A stretch of DNA of 63,568 bases. Origin: a virus. Lineage: Duplodnaviria; Caudoviricetes. A model generated the notes under the pieces. It did not search any database, was not told where the DNA came from, and worked only from the letters and a program-made list of their open reading frames with translations. Of the stretch, positions 13,578 to 63,524 are shown piece by piece; position 1 is the stretch's first letter; every line of letters begins with the position of its first letter. The stretch covers positions 1-63,568 of IMG/VR virus record IMGVR_UViG_3300009678_000062; one strand, 5' to 3'. The translations under genes and the position numbers were made by a program.

Positions 13578-14155
13578 TGGCACTTACCCCGTACAAAAAG
13601 ATCGATGATGGCGATCTCGCCAAGGCACTCATCCTTGCCGGTTCGGCCCGTCGCAGTATCGATCGTAACGACTTTCCGGTAGTCATCCGGGAAATGGAGG
13701 CGCAGCTCAGCATCACCCCCGCGCACATTCGCGGGGTCGACGATGCTGACGTCGGGACGCTTATCGTCAAGCAACAGACGGCGCAGGCGTCCGATGTCAC
13801 CGTCCCTGCGGTCAGCGTGTTCGCCCCGCTTGACAATGCAACCGGGGTGGCGACTACCGTCAGCCCGGGGGTGACCTTCAACGAGCAGATTGTGTTCGGT
13901 TCTGGCACCTTCAGCCTGTTCCTCACCACTGGTAACGTGCTGGTGCACGCATGGTCGATCCCGGCCAATATCGGATCGGGGCTGGGGCAGGCGTACATAA
14001 CCGGCGGCAACAAGGTCAATCTGCGTCCGCCGGCCGTGCTGGCAGCGGCGACCCAGCACTACATCACATGGACGGCAGGGGCGGTGCGCGACCTCGCCGG
14101 TAATAATGCTGCAGCGCAGGCGTCGACCACGGTGTGGTCGTTCACGACGGCTTAA
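13577..14155 (+). CDS. Ig-like (Big_5-type) virion or decoration protein
   Basis: PLDNATGVA...VTFNE...L...TQHYIT...AVRDLAGN...WSFTTA. Confidence 0.75.
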   Translation: MALTPYKKIDDGDLAKALILAGSARRSIDRNDFPVVIREMEAQLSITPAHIRGVDDADVGTLIVKQQTAQASDVTVPAVSVFAPLDNATGVATTVSPGVTFNEQIVFGSGTFSLFLTTGNVLVHAWSIPANIGSGLGQAYITGGNKVNLRPPAVLAAATQHYITWTAGAVRDLAGNNAAAQASTTVWSFTTA

Positions 14156-14184
14156 CTATCGATAGTTAACAGAGGAGAACGAAA

Positions 14185-25609: not shown

Positions 25610-25914
25610 GCGCGCTGGCCAAATTCGTCAAAGATCCTGATGAGACCAAGCGCTACGTCGTTTCATGGGCGGATTGGCTCGATACTGGCGAGCTGCTCCA
25701 GACTGCGGCATTCGAGGTTGCAGTCGATAGCGGCGACGATCTGGCGACGTTGGTAACTATCGATAGTTACGCGTTGACCACTGATCTGCTGGCCGTGGTG
25801 TTTTTTGTCAGTGGTGGCGTCGCCAATGTGGCATACAAGATCACCATTCGGGTGAACACCAACGGTGGTCAGGTCAAAGAGGACTGCGTCCTCATGTCGG
25901 TTAGGGATTGCTAA
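25606..25914 (+). CDS. small fibre-associated adaptor protein
   Basis: KDPDETKRYVVSW...VSGG...YKIT motif; ATGA-coupled to the fibre gene. Confidence 0.7.
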   Translation: MSALAKFVKDPDETKRYVVSWADWLDTGELLQTAAFEVAVDSGDDLATLVTIDSYALTTDLLAVVFFVSGGVANVAYKITIRVNTNGGQVKEDCVLMSVRDC

Positions 25915-46123: not shown

Positions 46124-46156
46124 AAGGGGTCGGGGCAATCCCGGCCCTTTACTTTT
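46124..46156 (+). terminator. intrinsic terminator overlapped by palindrome 46149
   Basis: AAGGGGTCGGG-GCAAT-CCCGGCCCTTT-ACTTTT. Confidence 0.7.
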
Positions 46157-48854: not shown

Positions 48855-49073
48855 CTACGCCGTCCCTACAACATCCGGACTGTGCACCCGTATCCGGTTG
48901 AGCTCGCTCTCGGGGAACTTGCCGGACTGAACTACCAGCTCGCTGACCAGCTTGAGGAACTCCTCGTCGCTCAGCACGAAGTTCACATTCATGTCCGGGG
49001 TTTTAGACACCGAAACCAGGATCGCGGTTCCGTTGCCGAGTAGCTGTACCTGCACCTGTGTGGGTGTGCTCAT
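48855..49073 (-). CDS. hypothetical protein
   Basis: ACCCACAAAGGAG leader; last gene of the leftward arm. Confidence 0.65.
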   Translation of the reverse strand: MSTPTQVQVQLLGNGTAILVSVSKTPDMNVNFVLSDEEFLKLVSELVVQSGKFPESELNRIRVHSPDVVGTA

Positions 49074-49074
49074 T

Positions 49075-49257
49075 TCATTCTCCTTTGTGGGTAAGGGCGG
49101 CGTCGACAGCGGCCTCTATGCCGACCTGTAGTGCGTATCGCCCAATGTCCTTATTGTGAGCCATCGCCGCAATCTCACGCAACGCCGCTTCGACACGCTC
49201 GATGCGAGCACGTAACTCATCCTGCTCTTGGGAACATTGCTTAAAAGTTTCGCTCAT
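49075..49257 (-). CDS. hypothetical coiled-coil protein
   Basis: GGAG RBS; ATGA overlap. Confidence 0.6.
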   Translation of the reverse strand: MSETFKQCSQEQDELRARIERVEAALREIAAMAHNKDIGRYALQVGIEAAVDAALTHKGE

Positions 49258-49991: not shown

Positions 49992-50366
49992 CTACTCCCA
50001 CTCGATGCCGAGAGCCGACATCACTTTACGCAGGTTGGCTTCGACGGCAGTGAGCTTGGCCTCGAGCATCTCGACCCGGGACTTGGTTGTCGCATTGTTG
50101 GTGACACGGTTGGCGGCACGCTCCTTGTGCGTGCGGAGATAGCCCATCAGCTGCACCTGCAGGCGATGGACGTTGTAGACGGTGACACCGCCACCGATCG
50201 TATCGGCAACCCGCTGCACGCCCCAGCCGGGAATGTAGCTCCCGTACTGCCGGCCGTCCTCGGGATCGAGCTCTGGCTCCTTGACGAACACTTCCCTCAG
50301 TTTATCGTAGACTGCTACAAACTGCTGCGCGGTGAGTACCTTACGGCTCGGGACATGGGCTTCCAT
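49992..50366 (-). CDS. hypothetical protein, possibly DNA-binding
   Basis: AAGGAG RBS before ATG 50366 (in-frame extension to 50507 possible); VQRVADTIG...TVYNV; coiled-coil tail. Confidence 0.6.
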   Translation of the reverse strand: MEAHVPSRKVLTAQQFVAVYDKLREVFVKEPELDPEDGRQYGSYIPGWGVQRVADTIGGGVTVYNVHRLQVQLMGYLRTHKERAANRVTNNATTKSRVEMLEAKLTAVEANLRKVMSALGIEWE

Positions 50367-50542
50367 TTCAGTCTCCTTTGTGGGTGTGGGTGGTAAGTTA
50401 CCTACTTTGTATTTATCATGCATAGGTGGTACATACACAACTTCAACCAGCTCCTCGTCGCCGGGGATCTGCATGGCAGTGCTACTTAGCAAGAAAGGTT
50501 TCAGCATTTCCTCATCCTCCTGTGGGTGGTTACTATCGATAG

Positions 50543-50725: not shown

Positions 50726-53655
50726 GTCAGATCCTGCAGGTAGGTTTTTGCTACCGACTGGGTCAGGTCGATATCGACGACGAAACTGCTGGCCCCGGCA
50801 TAGAACGTCCCCGCACCGAGCGTGGCGTTGGTCCGTATCGCGCCGAACTGCTGCTTCAATGCCTCGACGAAGACATGCCTCGGCGCGTGCCGTTTCTCGA
50901 GCCAATCCATGAGGCCAGAGAGGCTGATCCGTAGCCAGCGGTCCTTGGTGGCCACCTGCACGATCAGCGCGTCCTTGGGTTCGCCGAGTGTCTTGATCGT
51001 GCCCTGCTTCGGCTTGCCCCGTCCCCGCCACATGGTATCGGTGACCAGTGTGTTCTTCGCCCGCATGTCGCGGAGGAACTGGGCCAGCATGTCGGCGACG
51101 TTGATGCTCTTGGCCATGTCGACCGACTGGCTGTCCCGGATCGCCCGCATACCGTAGAACTGGTCGATCATGAACGAGCGCAGTTCATCAACGTCGATCG
51201 TGGTCAGGCCGAGCTCATTGGAGTAGATCGCACCCTGTACGATGACGGCGACCAGTGCCGCCCAGAACCGCTCGTCCTCTGCAACGTTCACTTCATTGCC
51301 GACCTTGATCATCTCATCGGCAACCTCGCGGTCGATCCGCTGGTAATTGCTGCCGAGAAACTGGGCGTAGATCTGCCCGGCATTGCCGTAGTTCGCACCC
51401 AGCGATGCGATCATGCGAGCGGCTTCCGAGATCGGGATCCGCCCTTTGGTACCGCGCTCGACGGTGAACTCGAACATGCGGTAGATGCCAGCCGTGGTCA
51501 TCTTGGTCTGGTTGACCACGTAGTCGAGCATGCTCTCGTTCGACGCCGTGACCAGCAGCGTCTCCCATGATCCGGCTTCACGCTGTTCGGCGTTGGGCCG
51601 CAGCCGGTGCTTTTCCCGCCCCTGCGTGATCTGGAAGAACAGCAGCACCATCCGGCGAGTATCCTCCTCGGTTTTCAACTCGTCCCAGAACATCGGCAGC
51701 GAGCGGAGCTTGCCGAGTTTGTTGACCACCGAATTCTGGGTATCGTTGAGCCCCTGCATGGCGCGGACCGGGTCACCCCACACCGCCTGAGCCACCTTCA
51801 TCGCCGTGGTTTTGCCGATACCGCTTTCCATCGAGTACAGGCTCATCAGCAGTCCCGGTTGCCCGGTGCAGCGAACCAACGGTGCGGCAAACGACGACGC
51901 CAGGATGGCGTCGAGCGCCGGTCGCTTCTGGCTGGTCACCATCTGGGCAGCATCATACCATACTTTTAGATCTCCTACAGGGTTATACTGCAGACCTAAT
52001 GCATGGTCAGTCGGGGGCGCGTTGCGGTTACCGCCCGGTGTGTAGAGAGTGCCACCGTAAGCGAACCCCTCCGGCGACCAACCGAATGGATCAGTGCCGG
52101 TTGATGCCTCTTTGATCGTCTGTAGTCTCTTTGTCCATGCCACGAAGAACTCTCCTACCTTTTTGACCTCGTTCGATTGCATCATCAGGCCGACCGTCTG
52201 CAGCTCGCGCCGCATGTCCTGTCCTGCCGTTATTCCGGCACTGATCTGCACCGGCTTGCTTAGTCCGACCCGAACCGAGGTGGTGAAGTTGAGCATTTCC
52301 CCTTTCACTGGATCGACGCTGAGAAAGGGATTGACCAGAACGTAGTCGAGGACGCGCGTGTAGATCGTCTGTCCAGCCTCATCCAGCGACGTTGCACTGA
52401 CGAACCCGTAGGTGTCGCGAATGTAGCCAGTTGGCAGGTCGATATTGCCTTTCAGCCCCGAGACGTAGGCCACCCCGTTGACATGGGGCGCCGGCACACG
52501 GGCGATGAAGTTGAGCGGCGACTTGCCCGCTTGCAGGTGCGGACAGGTTTTGCAGGGTTTCGAGCCATTGTTGGCGATCGTCTTGCATTGTGGCCAGCCC
52601 AGCCCCTTGGCGGCTTGTGCCTCCACCGCCAGATCGTACTTGTCGCTGGTATCCTTCTCGCTCCAGCGGACGTCGCCCTGACTCATCACCTGAGCCGCAG
52701 CTTCGCCTTCCTGTGTCCACATCGCCAGCTGGACACTCTCGTACCACAACGGTTCGCTATAGCCGTTGCCACCCGTGGCGCAGGCATCGCGAACGAAAGG
52801 GCACGCCCTGGCCAACTCCTTGAGGAACGGCTTTGGCAGCTTGTACTCGTCGATCCCCGCCGACAGGTCATTCGCTTGTAATGATGGTCCGTTAGGATTA
52901 AGCTGCTTACTATTGCTAGTTAGTGCCTTACCTGCTACCTTGTATGGAGCTAATGCATGCTCAATCCGCGAAACCGAGTAGTCGCCGTCTTCGACGACGA
53001 CCAGCTCGACCTCTTTGGTCGGGCTGAATTTGTGATTGAGGGTCTGGGGTATGCGGAGGATGCGGGCGTGATCAGTGCTGCAACCTACATCGAATTTCAG
53101 GCCATGATGCGTCGCTGCGTTGACGAGAGCGTGGGCATTTGGAAGCCATTCCTCTGGAGTGAGGATGCGGTCGAGCGTCCAGTAGACGTGGACCCCACCT
53201 CCGGTCCGCACCACGACTGACGGTGCAGGGAACTTGATCGCCTTGAGGAAATTGAACAGTGCGGTTACGGCATCCTCGATGGTGTCATAGCTGTCGGGCT
53301 CCCCCTTGGCGTCGAGGTCCATGTAAAGCGATTTGATCCCGACGACCTGCCCCTGTTCACGGATCGCCTTGGTGTACTTGTACCCCTTCTTCGATGTGAT
53401 CTCCTCAGCAGTACGGAGGGAACCCATGCAAACGTAGACGTCCTTCATGCTCGGCCGGCCTAGCGCCCAGTTGATCGTGCTGATCGCTTCCGTCACCGAC
53501 TTTACGCCACGGGTACTCCAGAAAAACTTGTCGCCTTCTCCTTTGCTTTTGTAGGTGATCCCGATCCACGCAGGTGGATCGCCGTCTTGCGGCCAGGGCA
53601 GCACCTTGGCGAGGTACTGCTTGGCCGTGCTGTAGTCCTTCATCAGACGTGCCAT
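50722..53655 (-). CDS. primase-helicase (RepB/AEP-like primase, Zn finger, DUF927-like NTPase)
   Basis: MDLD, TGGGVHVYW, RILRIPQTLNHK; CKTCPH; Walker A SGIGKTT; FWDE; LVTASN. Confidence 0.85.
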   Translation of the reverse strand: MARLMKDYSTAKQYLAKVLPWPQDGDPPAWIGITYKSKGEGDKFFWSTRGVKSVTEAISTINWALGRPSMKDVYVCMGSLRTAEEITSKKGYKYTKAIREQGQVVGIKSLYMDLDAKGEPDSYDTIEDAVTALFNFLKAIKFPAPSVVVRTGGGVHVYWTLDRILTPEEWLPNAHALVNAATHHGLKFDVGCSTDHARILRIPQTLNHKFSPTKEVELVVVEDGDYSVSRIEHALAPYKVAGKALTSNSKQLNPNGPSLQANDLSAGIDEYKLPKPFLKELARACPFVRDACATGGNGYSEPLWYESVQLAMWTQEGEAAAQVMSQGDVRWSEKDTSDKYDLAVEAQAAKGLGWPQCKTIANNGSKPCKTCPHLQAGKSPLNFIARVPAPHVNGVAYVSGLKGNIDLPTGYIRDTYGFVSATSLDEAGQTIYTRVLDYVLVNPFLSVDPVKGEMLNFTTSVRVGLSKPVQISAGITAGQDMRRELQTVGLMMQSNEVKKVGEFFVAWTKRLQTIKEASTGTDPFGWSPEGFAYGGTLYTPGGNRNAPPTDHALGLQYNPVGDLKVWYDAAQMVTSQKRPALDAILASSFAAPLVRCTGQPGLLMSLYSMESGIGKTTAMKVAQAVWGDPVRAMQGLNDTQNSVVNKLGKLRSLPMFWDELKTEEDTRRMVLLFFQITQGREKHRLRPNAEQREAGSWETLLVTASNESMLDYVVNQTKMTTAGIYRMFEFTVERGTKGRIPISEAARMIASLGANYGNAGQIYAQFLGSNYQRIDREVADEMIKVGNEVNVAEDERFWAALVAVIVQGAIYSNELGLTTIDVDELRSFMIDQFYGMRAIRDSQSVDMAKSINVADMLAQFLRDMRAKNTLVTDTMWRGRGKPKQGTIKTLGEPKDALIVQVATKDRWLRISLSGLMDWLEKRHAPRHVFVEALKQQFGAIRTNATLGAGTFYAGASSFVVDIDLTQSVAKTYLQDLT

Positions 53656-53685
53656 CGGCCATGCTCGTGGGTGAGAGGCTGCAGG

Positions 53686-53717
53686 GGCAGGGGGGTTGCA
53701 GCCCCCCTGCCATTTTT
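53686..53717 (+). terminator. terminator-like hairpin oriented antisense to the replication genes
   Basis: GGCAGGGGGG-TTGCAG-CCCCCCTGCC-ATTTTT. Confidence 0.65.
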
Positions 53718-53718
53718 A

Positions 53719-54747
53719 TTAGTTCTTCCCTCCTAGAAACGCGGAGAGCTTGGCGTCGAGCGCCGCGTCGAACGCCTCATCGCCCTCGTCTTCCTCAGCT
53801 GCCGCCGTTTCGGTGTTTGCAGTTTCCACCGTTGCAGCAGCTTCCTCCACCACCTGAGCATCCTCGATCTCCTCCGGCTCCTCTGCACGGGCGACCGCTG
53901 CCTTGCGCGGGCTCACCTTGCTCTTGGGCGGGGGAGCGGCGTTGATCACCTTGGGCGTTGCCGGCGGCAGCGCTGCGACCGCCGCCGGGCGCTGGGTCCC
54001 ACCGTCGGCGTCGATCACCGTCTCTCCCACTTCATCGAGGATCCGTTCGACCATCTGGTTATCCCGCATCTCGATGACGATCTCGCCTTCCTCCTTGGTC
54101 AGCGGCCGGATCGCCATGAACCGGAACTTGGGATATGCCTCCTGCGGATCGAACTGGATCTTGGTAGCCACGGCGTAGTAGTGGTATCCGAGCTTAGCCA
54201 GCTCGTTACCGTAGCTCGACAGGTCGGCCAGTGACGCAGCCGGCACGCGCAGCAGCATGGGTCCGCCCATATCCTCGTTGGCAACGTCGTCGAGCGGCAC
54301 TACGGCCATGCGCTTGCTGTCGGTGCACTCCTTCGCACGCTTGTTGTTCTCGGTGATCCTGCCACCCCAGATGTTACGCTGGCAGGTGGCGCACGTCTCC
54401 GACTGACGCTTGGGCGAGTTCGGGCTGGGCGTCACGCCGTTACCCGACCAGCAGTCGGGGGGCGACGTGTTGCCTTCGACATAACCCTGCTCATACCAGA
54501 CCTTGCTGAGCACTTTGGCAGAGGCGACGATCACCGCGTCGAAGCTCGAGCGCGGCCCATCGCCGTCCTCCCGCATCAGCACCTGCTCCTCGCCCCGGTA
54601 CCTGTAGCTCCAGGTTTTTCCCTTGTAGCCGACCACGGCGAAGCCGCCCGTGATGCCCCCGCTGAGGTCGTTCTCGACCGGCAGCTTGGTGAACACGTCA
54701 GCCATTTTGTACTTGGAAAAGTCCTTCGAAATCATCTCGTTAGCCAT
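53719..54747 (-). CDS. putative ssDNA-binding / replication protein
   Basis: PDCWS...CATCQRN...KEC...LLRVPAASL; acidic C-terminal tail; between helicase and primase. Confidence 0.65.
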   Translation of the reverse strand: MANEMISKDFSKYKMADVFTKLPVENDLSGGITGGFAVVGYKGKTWSYRYRGEEQVLMREDGDGPRSSFDAVIVASAKVLSKVWYEQGYVEGNTSPPDCWSGNGVTPSPNSPKRQSETCATCQRNIWGGRITENNKRAKECTDSKRMAVVPLDDVANEDMGGPMLLRVPAASLADLSSYGNELAKLGYHYYAVATKIQFDPQEAYPKFRFMAIRPLTKEEGEIVIEMRDNQMVERILDEVGETVIDADGGTQRPAAVAALPPATPKVINAAPPPKSKVSPRKAAVARAEEPEEIEDAQVVEEAAATVETANTETAAAEEDEGDEAFDAALDAKLSAFLGGKN

Positions 54748-57741: not shown

Positions 57742-58038
57742 TCAGTACAGGTTATCGAGGAACGTTTTCAGCGCGAACAGCTCCTCGTCATTGCTGACGC
57801 GGAACACCGTACCGCCGGCTTCCTCGATCCGCCGCCGGATCAGCTTCTGCATGTTGGTCAGATCCTCGCCCTCACGTTTGGTTTCGATGGCGATAAATCG
57901 ACCGCAGTAGCACACGAAATAATCCAGCGAACTGGCCTGATACTGCATCGGCACCGGCATGAAGTGGTAAAGTTTGTCGTAGGTACCGAGCAGCTTCTTA
58001 ACTTTTGCTTTTACTTTTCCTTCCGGCGTCGTTGCCAT
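57742..58038 (-). CDS. VRR-NUC endonuclease
   Basis: TPEGKVK...D...GRFIAIETK...Q...IEEAGG. Confidence 0.85.
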   Translation of the reverse strand: MATTPEGKVKAKVKKLLGTYDKLYHFMPVPMQYQASSLDYFVCYCGRFIAIETKREGEDLTNMQKLIRRRIEEAGGTVFRVSNDEELFALKTFLDNLY

Positions 58039-58079
58039 CGGGTTTCTCCTCTGTGGGTATCGTTCGTCCTCGATTATAC

Positions 58080-58993: not shown

Positions 58994-59695
58994 TCATACA
59001 TACTCGTCGTCGCCGCCCACCTCGACATTGACATCAGCCGTATCCGGCATGATCCCCGTTCCCGGTGCCGCTATCGGTCCGGTCGGCGTTGGCGTTGACG
59101 TTGCCGCTGCATTTCTGGCGGCAATGGAGCCCGCTGCCGCGCCTGCCAAGGTCTGCCGCTTCTTGTACTTACCCGGCGCGAGCGCCGTCCGTCCCGCCGC
59201 CAGCCGCGCCTTGTTGGTTTTTGCCAGGGATGTCGTAGTGCCCTGCAGGAGCCCCCGGTTGGCGGCTTTCTCCTCCGGGGTCATCTGAGTGCGGGTGAGG
59301 CGCTGCGCCGCCTGTGCGGCCCTTACACGCTGCGCCTCGATGATCCCCTGCTGCCTCGCCTGGGCGACCTTCTGCAGTGCGGCGCGCGTATCGGAACCGG
59401 GACCGGCCATACCCGTCACCGGGCGCGTCGACGCCTGACGTAGATACTGCCGGGCAGACTCAACCGACTGCGTCTGCTTCTTCGCTTTCTTCGCCGTCGC
59501 CTGCGCCGCTGCCTTGTCCTTCTGGAACTTCGCCTTCTCCTTCGCCTGCGCCGCTACCTCCTCCGGCGTCGGCTCCGCCGGCGTCGTCGTAGTATCCGTC
59601 GTCGAAGCTGTCGTCTCCTTCTCCTTCTCCTTCGGCTTCACCGGGGTAGCTGACTTGGCTTCCGCTGTCTTGTTCTTGTCCTTTTTCTTCGCCAT
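58994..59695 (-). CDS. Lys/Ala/Thr-rich basic protein, histone H1-like composition
   Basis: AGGAG RBS before ATG 59695; low complexity, basic. Confidence 0.65.
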   Translation of the reverse strand: MAKKKDKNKTAEAKSATPVKPKEKEKETTASTTDTTTTPAEPTPEEVAAQAKEKAKFQKDKAAAQATAKKAKKQTQSVESARQYLRQASTRPVTGMAGPGSDTRAALQKVAQARQQGIIEAQRVRAAQAAQRLTRTQMTPEEKAANRGLLQGTTTSLAKTNKARLAAGRTALAPGKYKKRQTLAGAAAGSIAARNAAATSTPTPTGPIAAPGTGIMPDTADVNVEVGGDDEYV

Positions 59696-60047
59696 TGACC
59701 GCTCCTATGGGTTGGCGTGCCATCATCTCGGCAACGCGCTTCTTGGTATCATCGTCGAGATACCAACCGAGCCCCCGTCGGGTACGAACGATGATACCCT
59801 GCGGAGTGAGCAGCTTACGCAGGCGCCAGACGGCGACCTGCGCATCTGCAACGATGTTCATTTCATACTGCAGAAGGTCGCGCGACACGAACTCTTTCGC
59901 AACCAGCAATCCGAGAAAATCAGCTAACCTCGGGGGCAGCGTGAACACATGCTGCAGGTGACGATCGTCCTGCATCAGCGCCTTTTGCAGCTGACGCACC
60001 CTGGCTTTGAGGATGATGTTCTCACGTTCATAGTTGTGTTCGCTCAT
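59460..60047 (-). CDS. OmpR/CtrA-type winged-helix (Trans_reg_C-like) regulator with an acidic tail
   Basis: LLVAKEFVSRD...AQVAVWRLRKLL...IVRTRRGLGWYL; no receiver domain. Confidence 0.75.
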   Translation of the reverse strand: MSEHNYERENIILKARVRQLQKALMQDDRHLQHVFTLPPRLADFLGLLVAKEFVSRDLLQYEMNIVADAQVAVWRLRKLLTPQGIIVRTRRGLGWYLDDDTKKRVAEMMARQPIGAVNGEEKGQEQDSGSQVSYPGEAEGEGEGDDSFDDGYYDDAGGADAGGGSGAGEGEGEVPEGQGSGAGDGEESEEADAVG

Positions 60048-60104: not shown

Positions 60105-61985
60105 TTACCCCACCATCTCGCCATAGCTCGGTCCAATCTTCACTTCGGATGCGAGCGGCAGTTCCGGTGCCCAGTTCGGACGCATCGCTGCCATCTCGAG
60201 CAGGATACGTTTAACCTGATCGGCGTGCTTCTCCTTGACCACGAAGATGAGCTCATCGTGGACCTGATGGGCGAAGCGCAACCCAGCTCCGAATGCGCGC
60301 AACGCCAGATCCTTGATGATGATCTGGGCCAGCGCCTGCGTGATGTTCTCCAGGGTTTTGGCACCGTAGAGAAACTTAAAGCGTCCGGCATAGGCGAAGC
60401 GCCACTGCATCTGGTTATACCCGGAAGCATTCGGTGCGGTATTGATCTGCTCCAGATCGTCGTAGAACAGCTTGAACCCGTTCGGCAGCAGGATCTCGTG
60501 CTTGTCGAACTTGCACGGGCCGAACATCCACGTGCCACCCCGAGCCAGTGTCGGGATGCCAGTGGACTGCAGCGCCGCCCATCCCTTCTGGATATCGGAG
60601 TACTTGTAGCGGTACTTGTCGACCACCTTCTTGGCGACTTCCGGCGTGAGCTCGATCGCCCGGCCAAGCTGGTTCTTCGAACCCGACTTGACGCTGATGA
60701 CGAACTTGTTGTGGGACATGCCGTAGCCCAACCCGAGGATCGCCGTCTTGCCGATGAAGCGGTAATCCGGGTTGACCTTCTTGCTGACCTGAACGTCGAA
60801 CACGTCCGCAGCGAACTGCGAGTAGACATCCTCACCCAGCGCAAACGCCTCCAGCAGGTCGAGCTGCTCGCAGATCCACGCCACGATACGGGCTTCGATC
60901 TGGCTCATGTCGATGCTGACCAGCAGGTATCCCTTGGGGGCTTGCAGCGCGCTACGCAGCGGGGATTTGCGTGGCAAGTTCTGCATGTTGAGCCTCATGT
61001 CCCCACTCAGGCGATGGGTGTGGGCACCGGAGAACCGCAACGGGATGGGCATCCAGCGCTCCCCCACCGGCCACGACAAACTACTGATAGTTATCAACCG
61101 TTGGGTCCGGGTTTCCTCCAGCGTGGTTTTATGTCCCAAGCGAGCAGCCACCAGCGCCTGCACGCGGGGATCCTCATGCTCCGCCAGATCGATGAAGCCG
61201 CTATCGGTTTTGGCAAAAGCCCAGGTTTTGTTGCCGGTGGTGAGCGATTGCTTGCGAGGCGGATCGACCCCCAGTTCCTGCAGCAGCGAGGCGAACTTGT
61301 CGTTTGAACGCAGTTCGCCGGCGTCGACCACGGAGGTCAACGCCAGCATCTCTTCCTTTTGCTTGAGCACATGGGCGAGGTGATCAATGAGCAGCTCGCG
61401 GTCCAGCCTGAACTGCGGCAGCACGGTCGCTTTGAGTACCAGATCCATGACATCCAGCTCGCGTGCCGGGAAATCGCGGATCAGGCGCTTGAAGATCGAA
61501 GCACATTTCTCATTGTCGTCGCAGCAGTAACTAGCCAGCTCGCGATGCAGCGACGGATTACGGATGATTTCGGCGTAATGCACGCCGACCATCTTGGTCA
61601 GCGTCGTGCCTTTGGCACCCAAGCCGAGGTGCTTGCTGACAGCGTCGAGCGATACGGATTTGAGCTTGTAGCTGAGCATTGCCCGCACCATGCCCATCGC
61701 ATCGATCAGCTTGTGCGGCACCCAGCTGTAGCGCCATGCAAGGATGGCAGCGTCGAACAGGGCATTGTAGGTGACGACGGCTTTCTCCGATCCTATGCTT
61801 AGTTCCTTGATCAGGTCAGGTATATCCGGACCATCGATCCATTGCGACTTATCCGTCAAGCCATGCTTGACGGCAACGCCGAGCGCTTCAAAGCGTGGGT
61901 CGAGGATATACTCGATAGGTGTCATCTTACGCAGGGTATAGTCCTTGCTGTAGTAAGTTTCAAAGTCGAGGATGATGAGATCCAC
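60105..61985 (-). CDS. polA: family A DNA polymerase with a 3'-5' exonuclease domain
   Basis: LDFETY, YNALFD, HTHRLSG...NMQNLPR, DMSQIEAR, R...K...LGLGYG, ENITQA, QVHDE. Confidence 0.94.
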   Translation of the reverse strand: MDLIILDFETYYSKDYTLRKMTPIEYILDPRFEALGVAVKHGLTDKSQWIDGPDIPDLIKELSIGSEKAVVTYNALFDAAILAWRYSWVPHKLIDAMGMVRAMLSYKLKSVSLDAVSKHLGLGAKGTTLTKMVGVHYAEIIRNPSLHRELASYCCDDNEKCASIFKRLIRDFPARELDVMDLVLKATVLPQFRLDRELLIDHLAHVLKQKEEMLALTSVVDAGELRSNDKFASLLQELGVDPPRKQSLTTGNKTWAFAKTDSGFIDLAEHEDPRVQALVAARLGHKTTLEETRTQRLITISSLSWPVGERWMPIPLRFSGAHTHRLSGDMRLNMQNLPRKSPLRSALQAPKGYLLVSIDMSQIEARIVAWICEQLDLLEAFALGEDVYSQFAADVFDVQVSKKVNPDYRFIGKTAILGLGYGMSHNKFVISVKSGSKNQLGRAIELTPEVAKKVVDKYRYKYSDIQKGWAALQSTGIPTLARGGTWMFGPCKFDKHEILLPNGFKLFYDDLEQINTAPNASGYNQMQWRFAYAGRFKFLYGAKTLENITQALAQIIIKDLALRAFGAGLRFAHQVHDELIFVVKEKHADQVKRILLEMAAMRPNWAPELPLASEVKIGPSYGEMVG

Positions 61986-62011
61986 TGTATTCTCCTATGG
62001 TTGGGTGGGTG

Positions 62012-62041
62012 CTTGACATTGTAATCGTAGGGCATTAGATA
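62012..62041 (+). promoter_or_regulatory. sigma70-like promoter pointing against the local gene direction
   Basis: C-TTGACA-17-TAGATA; predicted start near 62047-62048. Confidence 0.55.
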
Positions 62042-62047
62042 GTTGAC

Positions 62048-62133
62048 AGGGCCGATTGATCCCGGTCCTCTCCTAGTGGGTGGGAGCTCAACGAAGGGAT
62101 CGCGGTTTCCTCACCGCGATCCCTTTAACTTTT
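62048..62133 (+). ncRNA. candidate small antisense RNA with three hairpins and an anti-RBS segment
   Basis: AGGGCCG/CGGTCCT and CTCCT/GGGAG stems (G-U pairs valid on + only); 13-bp stem 62094-62125 followed by TAACTTTT; upstream promoter. Confidence 0.55.
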
Positions 62134-62138
62134 GATAG

Positions 62139-63491
62139 TTAGTCGTGCGGCACGACGACCACCTCGCCGAACGGATACGCCTCCGGCTGCAGCCCGATCG
62201 TCCCCCAGAACGTGGGATAGCCCGGTGCCCGCACGGGGAATTCGCCATACCCATCGGTCAGAAAAACCAACGCTTCCGGCCCCAGCCGGTTGTCCTCGAT
62301 ATAGTCGAACACCGGCCTAAAGTCGGTACCGCCACCACCCGGCGCTCCCTTGCGTCGGATCGTCTCGAGATCCATGGCATCCTCGATCTCGTCGACCTGA
62401 CCCACTTCAGCGTCGCACCAGATGACGATGATGCGCTTGGGCTTGAGCTGGGCAAGGATATTGCTCAAGCATCCGAACCACAACGACATCTCTTTATGAC
62501 CGATCGACCCCGAGGTATCGACCCCGATGGCGATCAGGTCACAGCCGAACCCAGCCCGGCTCGGTGCCCAGATATCCCGCACGATCAGCTTGCGGTCGGC
62601 TTTACGCCAGTTCCACGATCCACCCCCGATCTTGCGGGCGAACCATGACTGGACGACATCGGTCCAATCGACCTTGTCCTCGATCACTTCCTCGAACAGC
62701 CGCAGCAGACCGGCAGGCATCTTGCCCTGCGACTTGGCCATCTCGATCGCCGCCTTGATGTGGACGTCCCACTCGGCTTGGTTATGCTCGCTCTCGGCCT
62801 GATTGGGATCGATCTCGTCGACGGTGCCGGGCTGCAGGTGCACGTCAAATCCACCCGGCGCACCACCCGGGTTATCTTCCTCCCCTTCCTCCTCTTCCTC
62901 GTTTTCCCCGGGGGGCGGAGGTTGACCACTACCACCGAGTTGACCGGGCAGATCGCCCGGCTTCTTCCCTCTGCCACCAGTGTCGCGGAACAGCTTGGCG
63001 TAGACGTCGAGCACGCTATCCATCGCCGTGGCGATCCTCAGATCGTACAATGCTTCAGCCGGCAGCTTGCCGATCTTGCTATCGACCAGGATGGCGTTGA
63101 CCACGTAGTCGAGGGCACACTGGATCGCTACTGGATGGAACGGCAGCGACTTGCCGTTGCTCAGCAGCACCGTCTTCGAGCGGTTGAGCTTGTGCAGCAG
63201 CATGATGTGGTTGAGGATGTTGTGCAGGATCTCATGTGCAAGGATGAACAACCGCTCCATCAGCGAATGCTGGAAGAAGGTGTTGACGTTGATGACGACG
63301 CTGTTGCCGTCGGTGGCTGCCGTCGGCACGCGGGGGTCGTCGACGAACACGGCGATGTGGTCCGCATCCTTGCTCATCAGCTTGTAGAACAGGTGGGTGA
63401 GCGCCGGGGCGTACCACATCAGGACGGCACGGGTGTCGTCCCATTCCTTCAGTTGCTGCGGGGTTGGCTTTACTCTGATCAGCTCGGTCAT
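62139..63491 (-). CDS. metallopeptidase-VWA protein (DUF2201-like), partner of the MoxR-type ATPase
   Basis: TAATDG, LAHEILH (HExxH), DY.VN; MIDAS VDTSGSI; GGGGTDFRPVF; LTDGYG. Confidence 0.88.
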   Translation of the reverse strand: MTELIRVKPTPQQLKEWDDTRAVLMWYAPALTHLFYKLMSKDADHIAVFVDDPRVPTAATDGNSVVINVNTFFQHSLMERLFILAHEILHNILNHIMLLHKLNRSKTVLLSNGKSLPFHPVAIQCALDYVVNAILVDSKIGKLPAEALYDLRIATAMDSVLDVYAKLFRDTGGRGKKPGDLPGQLGGSGQPPPPGENEEEEEGEEDNPGGAPGGFDVHLQPGTVDEIDPNQAESEHNQAEWDVHIKAAIEMAKSQGKMPAGLLRLFEEVIEDKVDWTDVVQSWFARKIGGGSWNWRKADRKLIVRDIWAPSRAGFGCDLIAIGVDTSGSIGHKEMSLWFGCLSNILAQLKPKRIIVIWCDAEVGQVDEIEDAMDLETIRRKGAPGGGGTDFRPVFDYIEDNRLGPEALVFLTDGYGEFPVRAPGYPTFWGTIGLQPEAYPFGEVVVVPHD

Positions 63492-63524
63492 GGGTGTAGC
63501 TCCTTGTGGGTTAACTATCGGTAG

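Follow-up and report, generated by a model that had tools for sequence, protein, structure and literature searches.

To our knowledge most small RNAs (sRNAs) known from phages act in cis on one neighbouring gene or have host mRNAs as their targets. Here we discuss a candidate sRNA gene in a phage of the Caudoviricetes represented by IMG/VR record IMGVR_UViG_3300009678_000062, a complete virus record of 63,568 bp with 59% G+C that was analysed over its whole length and is referred to below as the window. The candidate occupies 62046-62134 on the + strand, in a 153-nt gap separating two leftward genes, polA and a gene for a VWA-like/metallopeptidase protein (DUF2201), here called VWA. Both belong to a leftward replication module that also has genes for an SNF2 helicase, a DUF927 primase/helicase (977 aa), an exonuclease and an ATPase. 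Our reading, to which we give a probability of about 0.55, is that this is a non-coding sRNA gene of about 85 nt (71-87 nt across the family), the product of which lowers expression of the replication genes by pairing with the leaders of their mRNAs.

There are several described systems to which the locus can be compared. The T4 proteins RegA, a translational repressor, and RegB, an endoribonuclease, are examples of one phage factor that shuts many early genes through an element shared by their initiation regions. These are proteins, whereas the factor proposed here is an RNA, and the shared element in this case is lineage-specific. In the alphaproteobacteria there are host-encoded sRNAs directed against the Shine-Dalgarno (SD) sequence, including AbcR1/2 and the 'cuckoo'/CcsR family with CCUCCUCCC loops. 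The predicted RNA resembles these in being hairpin-rich, in the size class of about 70-110 nt, in the host clade, and in a C/U-rich motif that would occlude the ribosome binding site (RBS) of several mRNAs. However their motif is in loops, whereas here the anti-SD sequence is in a stem arm and specificity would come from a GUGGGU loop.

The c4 RNA of phages P1 and P7 is excised from the operon transcript that also carries its targets and regulates just that one operon, and the CI RNA of satellite phage P4 is grouped with it. As described in PMC12197685, loops of c4 pair around an RBS of the phage's own mRNA, and from one related phage to another the RNA and its target sites diverge in step, with heteroimmunity as the result. 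The logic of our locus is closest to that of c4, as a conserved segment of the predicted RNA, which we call the box, is complementary to RBS regions of the phage's own mRNAs and co-varies with them between relatives. It differs in having its own promoter and terminator, in being on the opposite strand, and in matching the leaders of up to about 8-10 dispersed genes. Immunity is a function of c4, and there is no sequence or Rfam similarity between c4 and the RNA discussed here.

The same source describes lambda OOP, of 77 nt, as an RNA that has a promoter to itself, runs against genes of the replication region, pairs in cis with cII mRNA, overlapping the cII 3' end, and acts via RNase III (PMC12197685). 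The likeness to OOP, and to sar of P22, is that all are short, have a sigma-70-type promoter of their own and an intrinsic terminator, run against early or replication genes and act, or are predicted to act, on phage mRNA (PMC12197685). However the predicted sRNA overlaps no coding sequence, its tail ending before the VWA stop codon, so that there is no coding end involved as in OOP, and its conserved box matches the leaders of other genes. A full-text literature search found the exact box sequence in no paper of the library covered, and no description of this RNA.

What follows on the module and its conservation, strand and structure, and on the complementarity and co-variation of box and leaders, was obtained by computation. 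The two flanking genes and the parts of the predicted sRNA gene, which is antisense to the direction of both, are as follows.

60105-61985, leftward: polA (Pfam DNA_pol_A), with a GTG start at 61985
62139-63491, leftward: VWA (DUF2201), with its stop codon at 62139-62141
62013-62018, + strand: -35 hexamer TTGACA (CTTGACA from 62012), read from the sequence and kept in homologues
62036-62041, + strand: -10 hexamer TAGATA after a 17-nt spacer; start predicted from the spacing at about 62046-62049
62049-62068, + strand: hairpin 1 (HP1), GGGCCG at 62049-62054 with CGGUCC at 62063-62068, one G-U pair; abuts the box
62069-62086, + strand: the box, UCUCCUAGUGGGUGGGAG, which is also hairpin 2 (HP2); arm CUCCU(A) pairs with (U)GGGAG, loop GUGGG(U)
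62093-62126, + strand: hairpin 3 (HP3), stem-loop of the intrinsic terminator, 14 pairs with a UUCCUC loop, followed by AACTTTTGAT
62124-62134, + strand: U-rich tail UUUAACUUUUG, the predicted 3' end, supported by the U count in homologues
62126-62141, no strand assigned: a copy of a 16-bp palindrome, TAACTTTTGATAGTTA, overlapping the sRNA tail and the VWA stop codon

The promoter, the hairpins, the tail and the palindrome had all been proposed in a sequence-only reading of this DNA made before the present analysis, and all are present where it placed them, the one correction being that the terminator stem, given there as 13 bp, has 14 pairs. It had also pointed out that the AGGAG on the minus strand of the box is not followed by a start codon, and there is indeed none 3-11 nt downstream of 62070-62074. 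A generic promoter scan did not report the sRNA promoter because TAGATA lacks a T at position 6. The pattern CTTGAC-N16-18-nnAnnT, which is the alphaproteobacterial-type promoter consensus, has just two sites in the 63.5 kb, one of them the sRNA promoter.

Folding of 62040-62141 gave -47.1 kcal/mol for the + strand (z -5.2, with none of 200 shuffles as stable) and -42.2 kcal/mol for the - strand (z -4.5). There was no match in Rfam 15 at gathering score in the whole window, and at E<=10 the only match in 61950-62200 was a chance snoRNA (E 3.5). A small protein gene is not supported, as in the 12 complete homologues described below no open reading frame (ORF) is conserved in frame on either strand; the longest closed ORFs are of 0-31 codons and the frames through the box differ.

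The same module is present in more than 20 related phage contigs, in which the polA proteins are only about 45-70% identical, and it was found in two ways. Three collections covering genomes and metagenomes were scanned for the exact box, and hits were classified blind to the promoter. The majority of the approximately 230 hits are chance or coding matches, for example within an actinobacterial gene, but 12 of the 207 distinct hits with full flanks have a hairpin of at least 13 bp directly after the box. TTGAC at -60 to -44 is present in 11 of these 12, as against 2/154 hits without a hairpin and 0/41 with a weaker one. The scan set together with the window and two truncated contigs gives 14 distinct box-found homologues, 12 of them complete, and in all 14 there is TTGAC(A/T/G/C) 17 nt ahead of a -10-like hexamer. 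The downstream gene on the opposite strand is polA in nine of these homologues and either of two further genes in the remaining five, and given three different gene contexts the module behaves as a self-contained unit.

As searching with a 17-mer carries a bias, we also gathered 80 polA relatives independently of the box. The closest relative found by polA alone, L002 (68% identity), has in the same gap a box without the extra A, an antisense TTGACA-17-TAGGTA and hairpins of different sequence. A model, R1, built from the box region and terminator with the promoter excluded, matched 8 of the 80 polA loci at E<=0.001, five of them new. Reading the first 22 loci by eye gave the module in about 12-13, with box variants, and a heuristic scan gave 7/80, being overly strict and overlooking modules visible by eye. 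The variants are GCUCCUGUGGGUGGGAG (L278), CCUCCUGGGUGGGAG (L279), CUUUCCUGUGGGUGGAAAG (L283), UGCUCCUUUGGGUGGGAGCA (L285), ACUCCGGGUGGAGU (L290), UUCUCUCGUGGGUGGGAA (L291) and AUCUCUCUUGGUAGGGGAGAU (L280), and within the box it is the loop, (G/U)UGGGU, that varies least. TTGAC 17 nt ahead of a -10-like hexamer is also present in seven homologues found without use of the promoter (L002, L278, L279, L285, L291, L293 and L378). A further copy, with box CUCCUGUGGGUGGAG, adjoins polA in one of 150 other sampled Bradyrhizobium-family genomes, or two of 151 if G006 is counted. The TTGAC element, with its 17-nt spacing to a -10-like hexamer, is upstream of this copy and of every box variant listed. 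The distant polA relatives L003-L005 have other genes upstream and no module. A promoter-region pattern, TTACAWTGTCAAGCRCCC, was rejected as a search handle, its matches being unrelated except for L002's own contig.

It is very unlikely in view of this distribution that the locus is a relic, the leader of a lost gene left beside an ordinary terminator with no function of its own. There is indeed no ORF after the AGGAG, and terminator-plus-leader modules occur elsewhere in the genome, but a relic would not be expected to be kept at such polA divergence and in three gene contexts, nor to show the compensatory stem changes described below.

Among cultured phages the polA protein is closest to those of Rhizobium phages RHph_TM27A, TM27B, TM29 and TM3_14A (about 48% amino-acid identity), and next to that of Pseudomonas phage KPP25 (32%). 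One homologue (L144/L018) is NZ_PSRT01000042.1, a relative of 60,568 bp that makes up one entire, separate contig among those assembled from a cultured isolate of Bradyrhizobium genosp. SA-3, and this suggests rhizobial hosts; the contig could represent an episome, a carrier state or a contaminating phage. No lysogeny marker, such as an integrase or partition gene, was seen among the 30 distinct window proteins scanned, a scan that was not exhaustive. RHph_TM27A has a similar antisense arrangement just upstream of the genes before polA (MN988461.1 31273-31407; L261 2135-2269, minus), with TTGCTA-17-TATAGT, a hairpin containing CUCUUGUGUGGGGUAGG and then a strong hairpin. The R1 model gave no match there, and only a few of the annotated RHph_TM27A leaders resemble the complement. 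The arrangement may be a divergent copy of the sRNA gene.

We now turn to the leaders. The motif ACCCAC(A)-N0-3-AGGAGA in leaders of leftward genes is complementary to the CUCCU arm plus GUGGGU loop of HP2. The window has 66 genes by our own simple caller, which gives crude starts (RHph_TM27A, being annotated, is the exception), and in the 35 nt before the 66 starts ACCCAC was observed 10 times against 0.61 expected. The strict form ACCCA[CT]-N0-4-[AG]GGAG has eight copies on the minus strand, none on the plus strand and one in the reversed-pattern control. Seven of the eight precede ORFs of 72-450 aa, namely those for the ATPase, VWA and proteins of 233, 171, 98 and 72 aa plus one internal start, the remaining copy being the orphan in the gap; the polA and primase/helicase leaders have looser versions. 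The leaders are given below.

61991-62011, - strand: polA leader CACCCACCCAACCAUAGGAGA, 8 plus 7 nt complementary, duplex with the box -25.6 kcal/mol
63500-63511, - strand: VWA (DUF2201) leader ACCCACAAGGAG, 11/12 complementary
1955-1968, - strand: leader ACCCACACUAGGAG of the ATPase gene (808-1947), 10 contiguous complementary nt, CACUAGGAGA
50517-50527, - strand: leader ACCCACAGGAG of the 171-aa ORF (49992-50507), best predicted duplex, -26.0 kcal/mol
50373-50385, - strand: leader ACCCACAAAGGAG of an in-frame internal start with a 124-aa product, strict motif
49080-49092, - strand: leader ACCCACAAAGGAG of the 72-aa ORF (48855-49073), strict motif
58046-58058, - strand: leader ACCCACAGAGGAG of the 98-aa ORF (57742-58038; endonuclease PHROG match), strict motif
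59702-59712, - strand: leader ACCCAUAGGAG of the 233-aa ORF (58994-59695), strict motif

The internal start is preceded by a very strong leader, ACCCACACCCACAAAGGAGACUGAAAUG (50353-50416), within the 171-aa ORF and in frame, and it is possible that the annotated start of that ORF is wrong or that two products are nested.

Duplex energies were compared with those of 200 control boxes in which UCUCCU was kept and the remainder shuffled, the statistic being the sum of the ten best duplex energies. The real box was reached by 1/200 controls in the window and 5/200 in G003, and the complementarity thus exceeds a generic SD match in the window and nearest relative and is marginal in more distant ones. 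In G003 the strict motif has nine copies on the gene strand and three on the sRNA strand. A fixed-spacing motif, CCCACCCA-N5-AGGAG, was not significant (five matches, with 2/100 shuffles reaching five). There is no enrichment of possible host targets in an 8.7-Mb Bradyrhizobium genome that carries a relative, as CCCACCCACAGGAGA with up to 2 mismatches gave seven matches, one of them the phage's own, against eight for the reversed control.

The strongest result is the co-variation of box and leaders. Five further relatives with variant boxes, complete or partial, were brought together, and every box was crossed with every genome's leaders. Of the 25 leaders of G007, nine have at least 8 contiguous nt complementary to the box of that genome, UCUCUCUUGGUAGGGGAGA, as against no leader of nine other genomes, and the other boxes have no such match in G007 leaders. 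The mean of the best eight duplexes is -23.0 kcal/mol for the cognate combination, whereas the crosses gave -14.6 to -18.4 and -14.2 to -19.1, and the double-centred residual is -7.3 kcal/mol. In place of ACCCACA-AGGAGA the G007 leaders have CCCCUACCA-N1-2-(A)GAGGUAA, with 13 copies on the gene strand and none on the sRNA strand, a pattern that was written after the leaders had been seen. A milder case is G009, which has the shortened box ACUCCGGGUGGAGU and ACCCGGAG as its best leaders. The leaders of G003 favour its own contiguous box (9/10). In the window the leader motif mostly carries 1-3 additional nt, and the leaders show no preference for or against the extra A in the window's box (5 vs 4).

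It is here that a purely local role can be assessed. The + strand RNA could be real and act only in cis, by pairing or colliding with VWA-to-polA read-through to set polA expression or process the operon mRNA, in which case the likeness to other leaders would be meaningless. Complementarity to the intercistronic mRNA is perfect by construction, the -35 hexamer is 28 nt from the polA start, the module is directly upstream of an opposite-strand gene in every context, and it is retained in relatives with few matching leaders. However a cis antisense RNA needs no particular sequence, and yet conservation of the box is much higher than that of HP1 or the terminator, and the leaders of other genes change when the box changes. 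We therefore consider the cis-only explanation unlikely. With regard to the polA side, there is a good gene-strand -10-like hexamer overlapping the -35 and spacer of the sRNA promoter, TACAAT in the window (62019-62026, -) and TACATT in L002 (3962-3968, +), which would start polA mRNA right at the CACCCACCC leader. L006 and L008 do not keep it. The two promoters may face each other and exclude one another's use.

The conserved promoter, the side on which the U tract lies and the G-U bias in the stems all point to the + strand as the sRNA strand, and the + strand also has the more stable fold. In the 10 nt after the terminator stem the 12 complete homologues have 3-6 T on the sRNA strand, and the same count on the gene strand gives 1-3 T in 11 of the 12 and 5 in L002. 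In the gene-strand direction the stem is followed by CGUUGAGCUCC, with no U tract. The terminator alignment has seven G-U cells against two non-pairs, and there are G-U pairs in four HP1 stems; G-U pairs favour the + strand because their gene-strand equivalents are A-C mismatches.

The stems themselves are well supported. For the terminator 10 of 11 pairs have compensatory changes in the 12 homologues, 98.5% of cells are paired and none of 500 shuffles matched this, in an alignment that was fitted to the model and hence is biased toward structure. HP1 and HP2 were described sequence by sequence with a script, as MAFFT alignments lost their structural register. A stem of the HP1 type, of at least 4 bp and ending 0-2 nt before the box, is present in 14/14 homologues with differing sequences, the shuffled mean being 5.5/14 and none of 2000 simulations reaching 14. 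The variants of the HP2 stem still pair (CUUUCC/GGAAAG, UGCUCCU/GGGAGCA, ACUCC/GGAGU and AUCUCUCU/GGGGAGAU), and this compensation between the arms shows that HP2 is a genuine structure. Predicted transcripts are of 71-87 nt, and for 11 of 12 the predicted fold has the same set of three hairpins, in which the GUGGGU loop is exposed; in most of the transcripts the unpaired probability of the HP2 loop is about 0.8-1.0. The loop of the terminator hairpin is also conserved, in two types, (U)GUCCAGA(U/C) and GUGGUGG, the latter resembling the box. The homologues with these two types, listed jointly, are L006, L008, L010, L018, L162, L234; L180, L209, L279, L280, L286, L290 and L378. This loop may be a second interaction site.

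The structures also bear on the suggestion that the box acts as DNA, its imperfect inverted repeat TCTCC-N7/8-GGAGA being bound by a phage protein as an operator, an origin or a packaging site. The box does have dyad symmetry and is in the replication module, but the stem changes preserve RNA pairing through G-U pairs, promoter and terminator flank the box in the order of an RNA gene, and a role as DNA would not explain why the box is complementary to mRNA leaders, and this on one strand only. We regard it as highly improbable.

Several points weigh against the sRNA as a repressor of many leaders. The U tracts are poor in L002 and G007, and in the predicted folds the CUCCU anti-SD arm is sequestered in the HP2 stem. 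The top-10 duplex test is weak in G001 (16/200), G002 (13/200) and G004 (23/200), and the number of duplexes at or below -15 kcal/mol does not differ significantly from controls in any of the five genomes, as G-rich shuffles pair promiscuously. G002 and G004 have the identical box, yet have the strict motif only as the orphan copy; G008 and G010 have no leader with at least 8 contiguous nt, and G002 and G001 have 1/35 and 2/40 respectively. The leader analysis depends on gene starts from a crude caller, and the 'invariance' of the 17-mer is an artefact of searching with it, as relatives found by polA carry variants.

There is also a second, weaker match to the RNA model in the window:

53645-53723, + strand: match of 27.8 bits, antisense of the primase/helicase (977 aa) leader CUCUCACCCACGAGCAUG

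It has a perfect + strand terminator, GGCAGGGGGG..CCCCCCTGCC ATTTTTATTA, after the leader antisense, with AUUUUUAUUA, and we saw no convincing promoter for it. The homologous gene is preceded in G001 by a counterpart that has a U tract, and in G003 by one that lacks it. The match in the window may represent a cis-antisense RNA, or may serve to block antisense transcription, and having no visible promoter it indicates that an antisense leader plus terminator can exist without an sRNA gene.

Finally the co-variation would also be expected if the orphan were a leader-like site on the sense strand, recognised by the same factor as the leaders. On that explanation the orphan CUCCCACCCACUAGGAGA would serve as a standby site or decoy for ribosomes, or would be bound by a phage protein of the RegA/RegB kind that recognises all leaders of this type, and the hairpins would be elements for mRNA processing or stability. 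It would account for the orphan being an idealised copy of the leaders that co-varies with them, for a hairpin-then-leader arrangement also ahead of primase/helicase, and for the G003 hairpin having no U tract on either side. It leaves unexplained the opposite-strand TTGAC 17 nt from a -10-like hexamer at a fixed distance, including in homologues found without the promoter, the U tract on the antisense side, and the excess of G-U over A-C in the stems. The balance tips to an sRNA because promoter, U tract and G-U bias are all on the other strand, and we think function of the gene strand quite unlikely.

Taking the evidence together, what we have is, on comparative sequence grounds, a real and unannotated phage sRNA family, the members of which are probably anti-leader repressors. 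The observations of the sequence-only reading are confirmed, including its leader matches (10 contiguous nt for the ATPase, 11/12 for VWA and 8 plus 7 for polA), and its interpretation is partly supported. Its preference for the + strand, from G-U pairs, is borne out also by the U-tract side and promoter position; its discrete sRNA gene, with promoter, three hairpins and terminator, recurs in related phages; and its co-evolved extended RBS is seen in the way box and leader motif co-vary between lineages (9/25 against 0 for G007). The simpler view, which it had raised, that the stem is only the VWA terminator fails, as the U tract is on the + strand side. Its regulon under one sRNA is supported in so far as the box matches extended leftward leaders beyond the SD sequence, but several relatives have few or no matching leaders. 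Likewise the enrichment of targets over generic SD genes is seen in the top-10 test in the window and G003, and not in the -15 kcal/mol count or, other than weakly, in G001, G002 and G004.

For the mechanism, we propose that host RNA polymerase would transcribe the sRNA from TTGACA-17-TAGATA, against the surrounding replication genes, and stop at the intrinsic terminator. The HP2 loop would then contact ACCCAC, 0-3 nt upstream of AGGAGA, in leaders of leftward genes, the proposed targets being those for the ATPase, VWA, polA, primase/helicase and several small ORFs. Pairing would extend across the SD sequence, and with ribosome binding blocked or the duplex cleaved, expression of the replication module would go down as a group. 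The sRNA would in addition be perfectly complementary to any VWA-to-polA read-through transcript. Transcription of the sRNA, pairing in vivo and the repressive outcome are what we infer from these features. Of the sequencing runs that contain this DNA none is recorded as RNA, and contigs from three runs presumed to be RNA matched parts of polA and VWA with none of them spanning 61914-62216, which speaks neither for nor against a transcript.

The 16-bp palindrome that overlaps the sRNA tail, TAACTATCGATAGTTA, is a separate matter. There are 31 copies with up to 3 mismatches in the whole window against 0.02 expected, for example at 14153-14168, 25754-25769 and 62126-62141, mostly at gene junctions on both gene strands and with some inside giant structural genes. 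Relatives have different palindromes in the same places, TTACTTCCGGAAGTAA in L002 and GTTACC..GGTAAC enclosing the SD sequence in G007 and RHph_TM27A. The palindrome may be bound by a protein with which it co-evolves, or may form a hairpin in RNA. The rightward structural genes end in a terminator, 46124-46150 (+), AAGGGGTCGGGG..CCCGGCCCTTT ACTTTTGATA, that shares the tail-plus-palindrome arrangement with the sRNA terminator.

A more tentative extension, which we hold to be possible but doubtful, is that sRNA and leader motif form an RNA-based specificity code for the replication regulon. The lineage pairs of loop and leader (GUGGGU/ACCCAC, UGGUAGGGG/CCCCUACCA and GGGU/ACCC) would diversify under selection as do those of P1/P7 c4, with silencing of the same type or a quiet state as the outcome. 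If so, a resident or earlier phage could shut off replication genes in a newcomer of its own type and not in one of another type, and the same RNA could keep the phage quiet in a carrier or episomal state.

If the main reading is correct, these phages would have an sRNA family that controls their own set of replication genes through a shared, lineage-specific extension of the RBS, in effect an RNA counterpart of RegA and RegB of T4. It would provide natural orthogonal pairs of sRNA and leader that could be used as tools, and would explain the unusual conserved element just upstream of the SD sequence in these phages.

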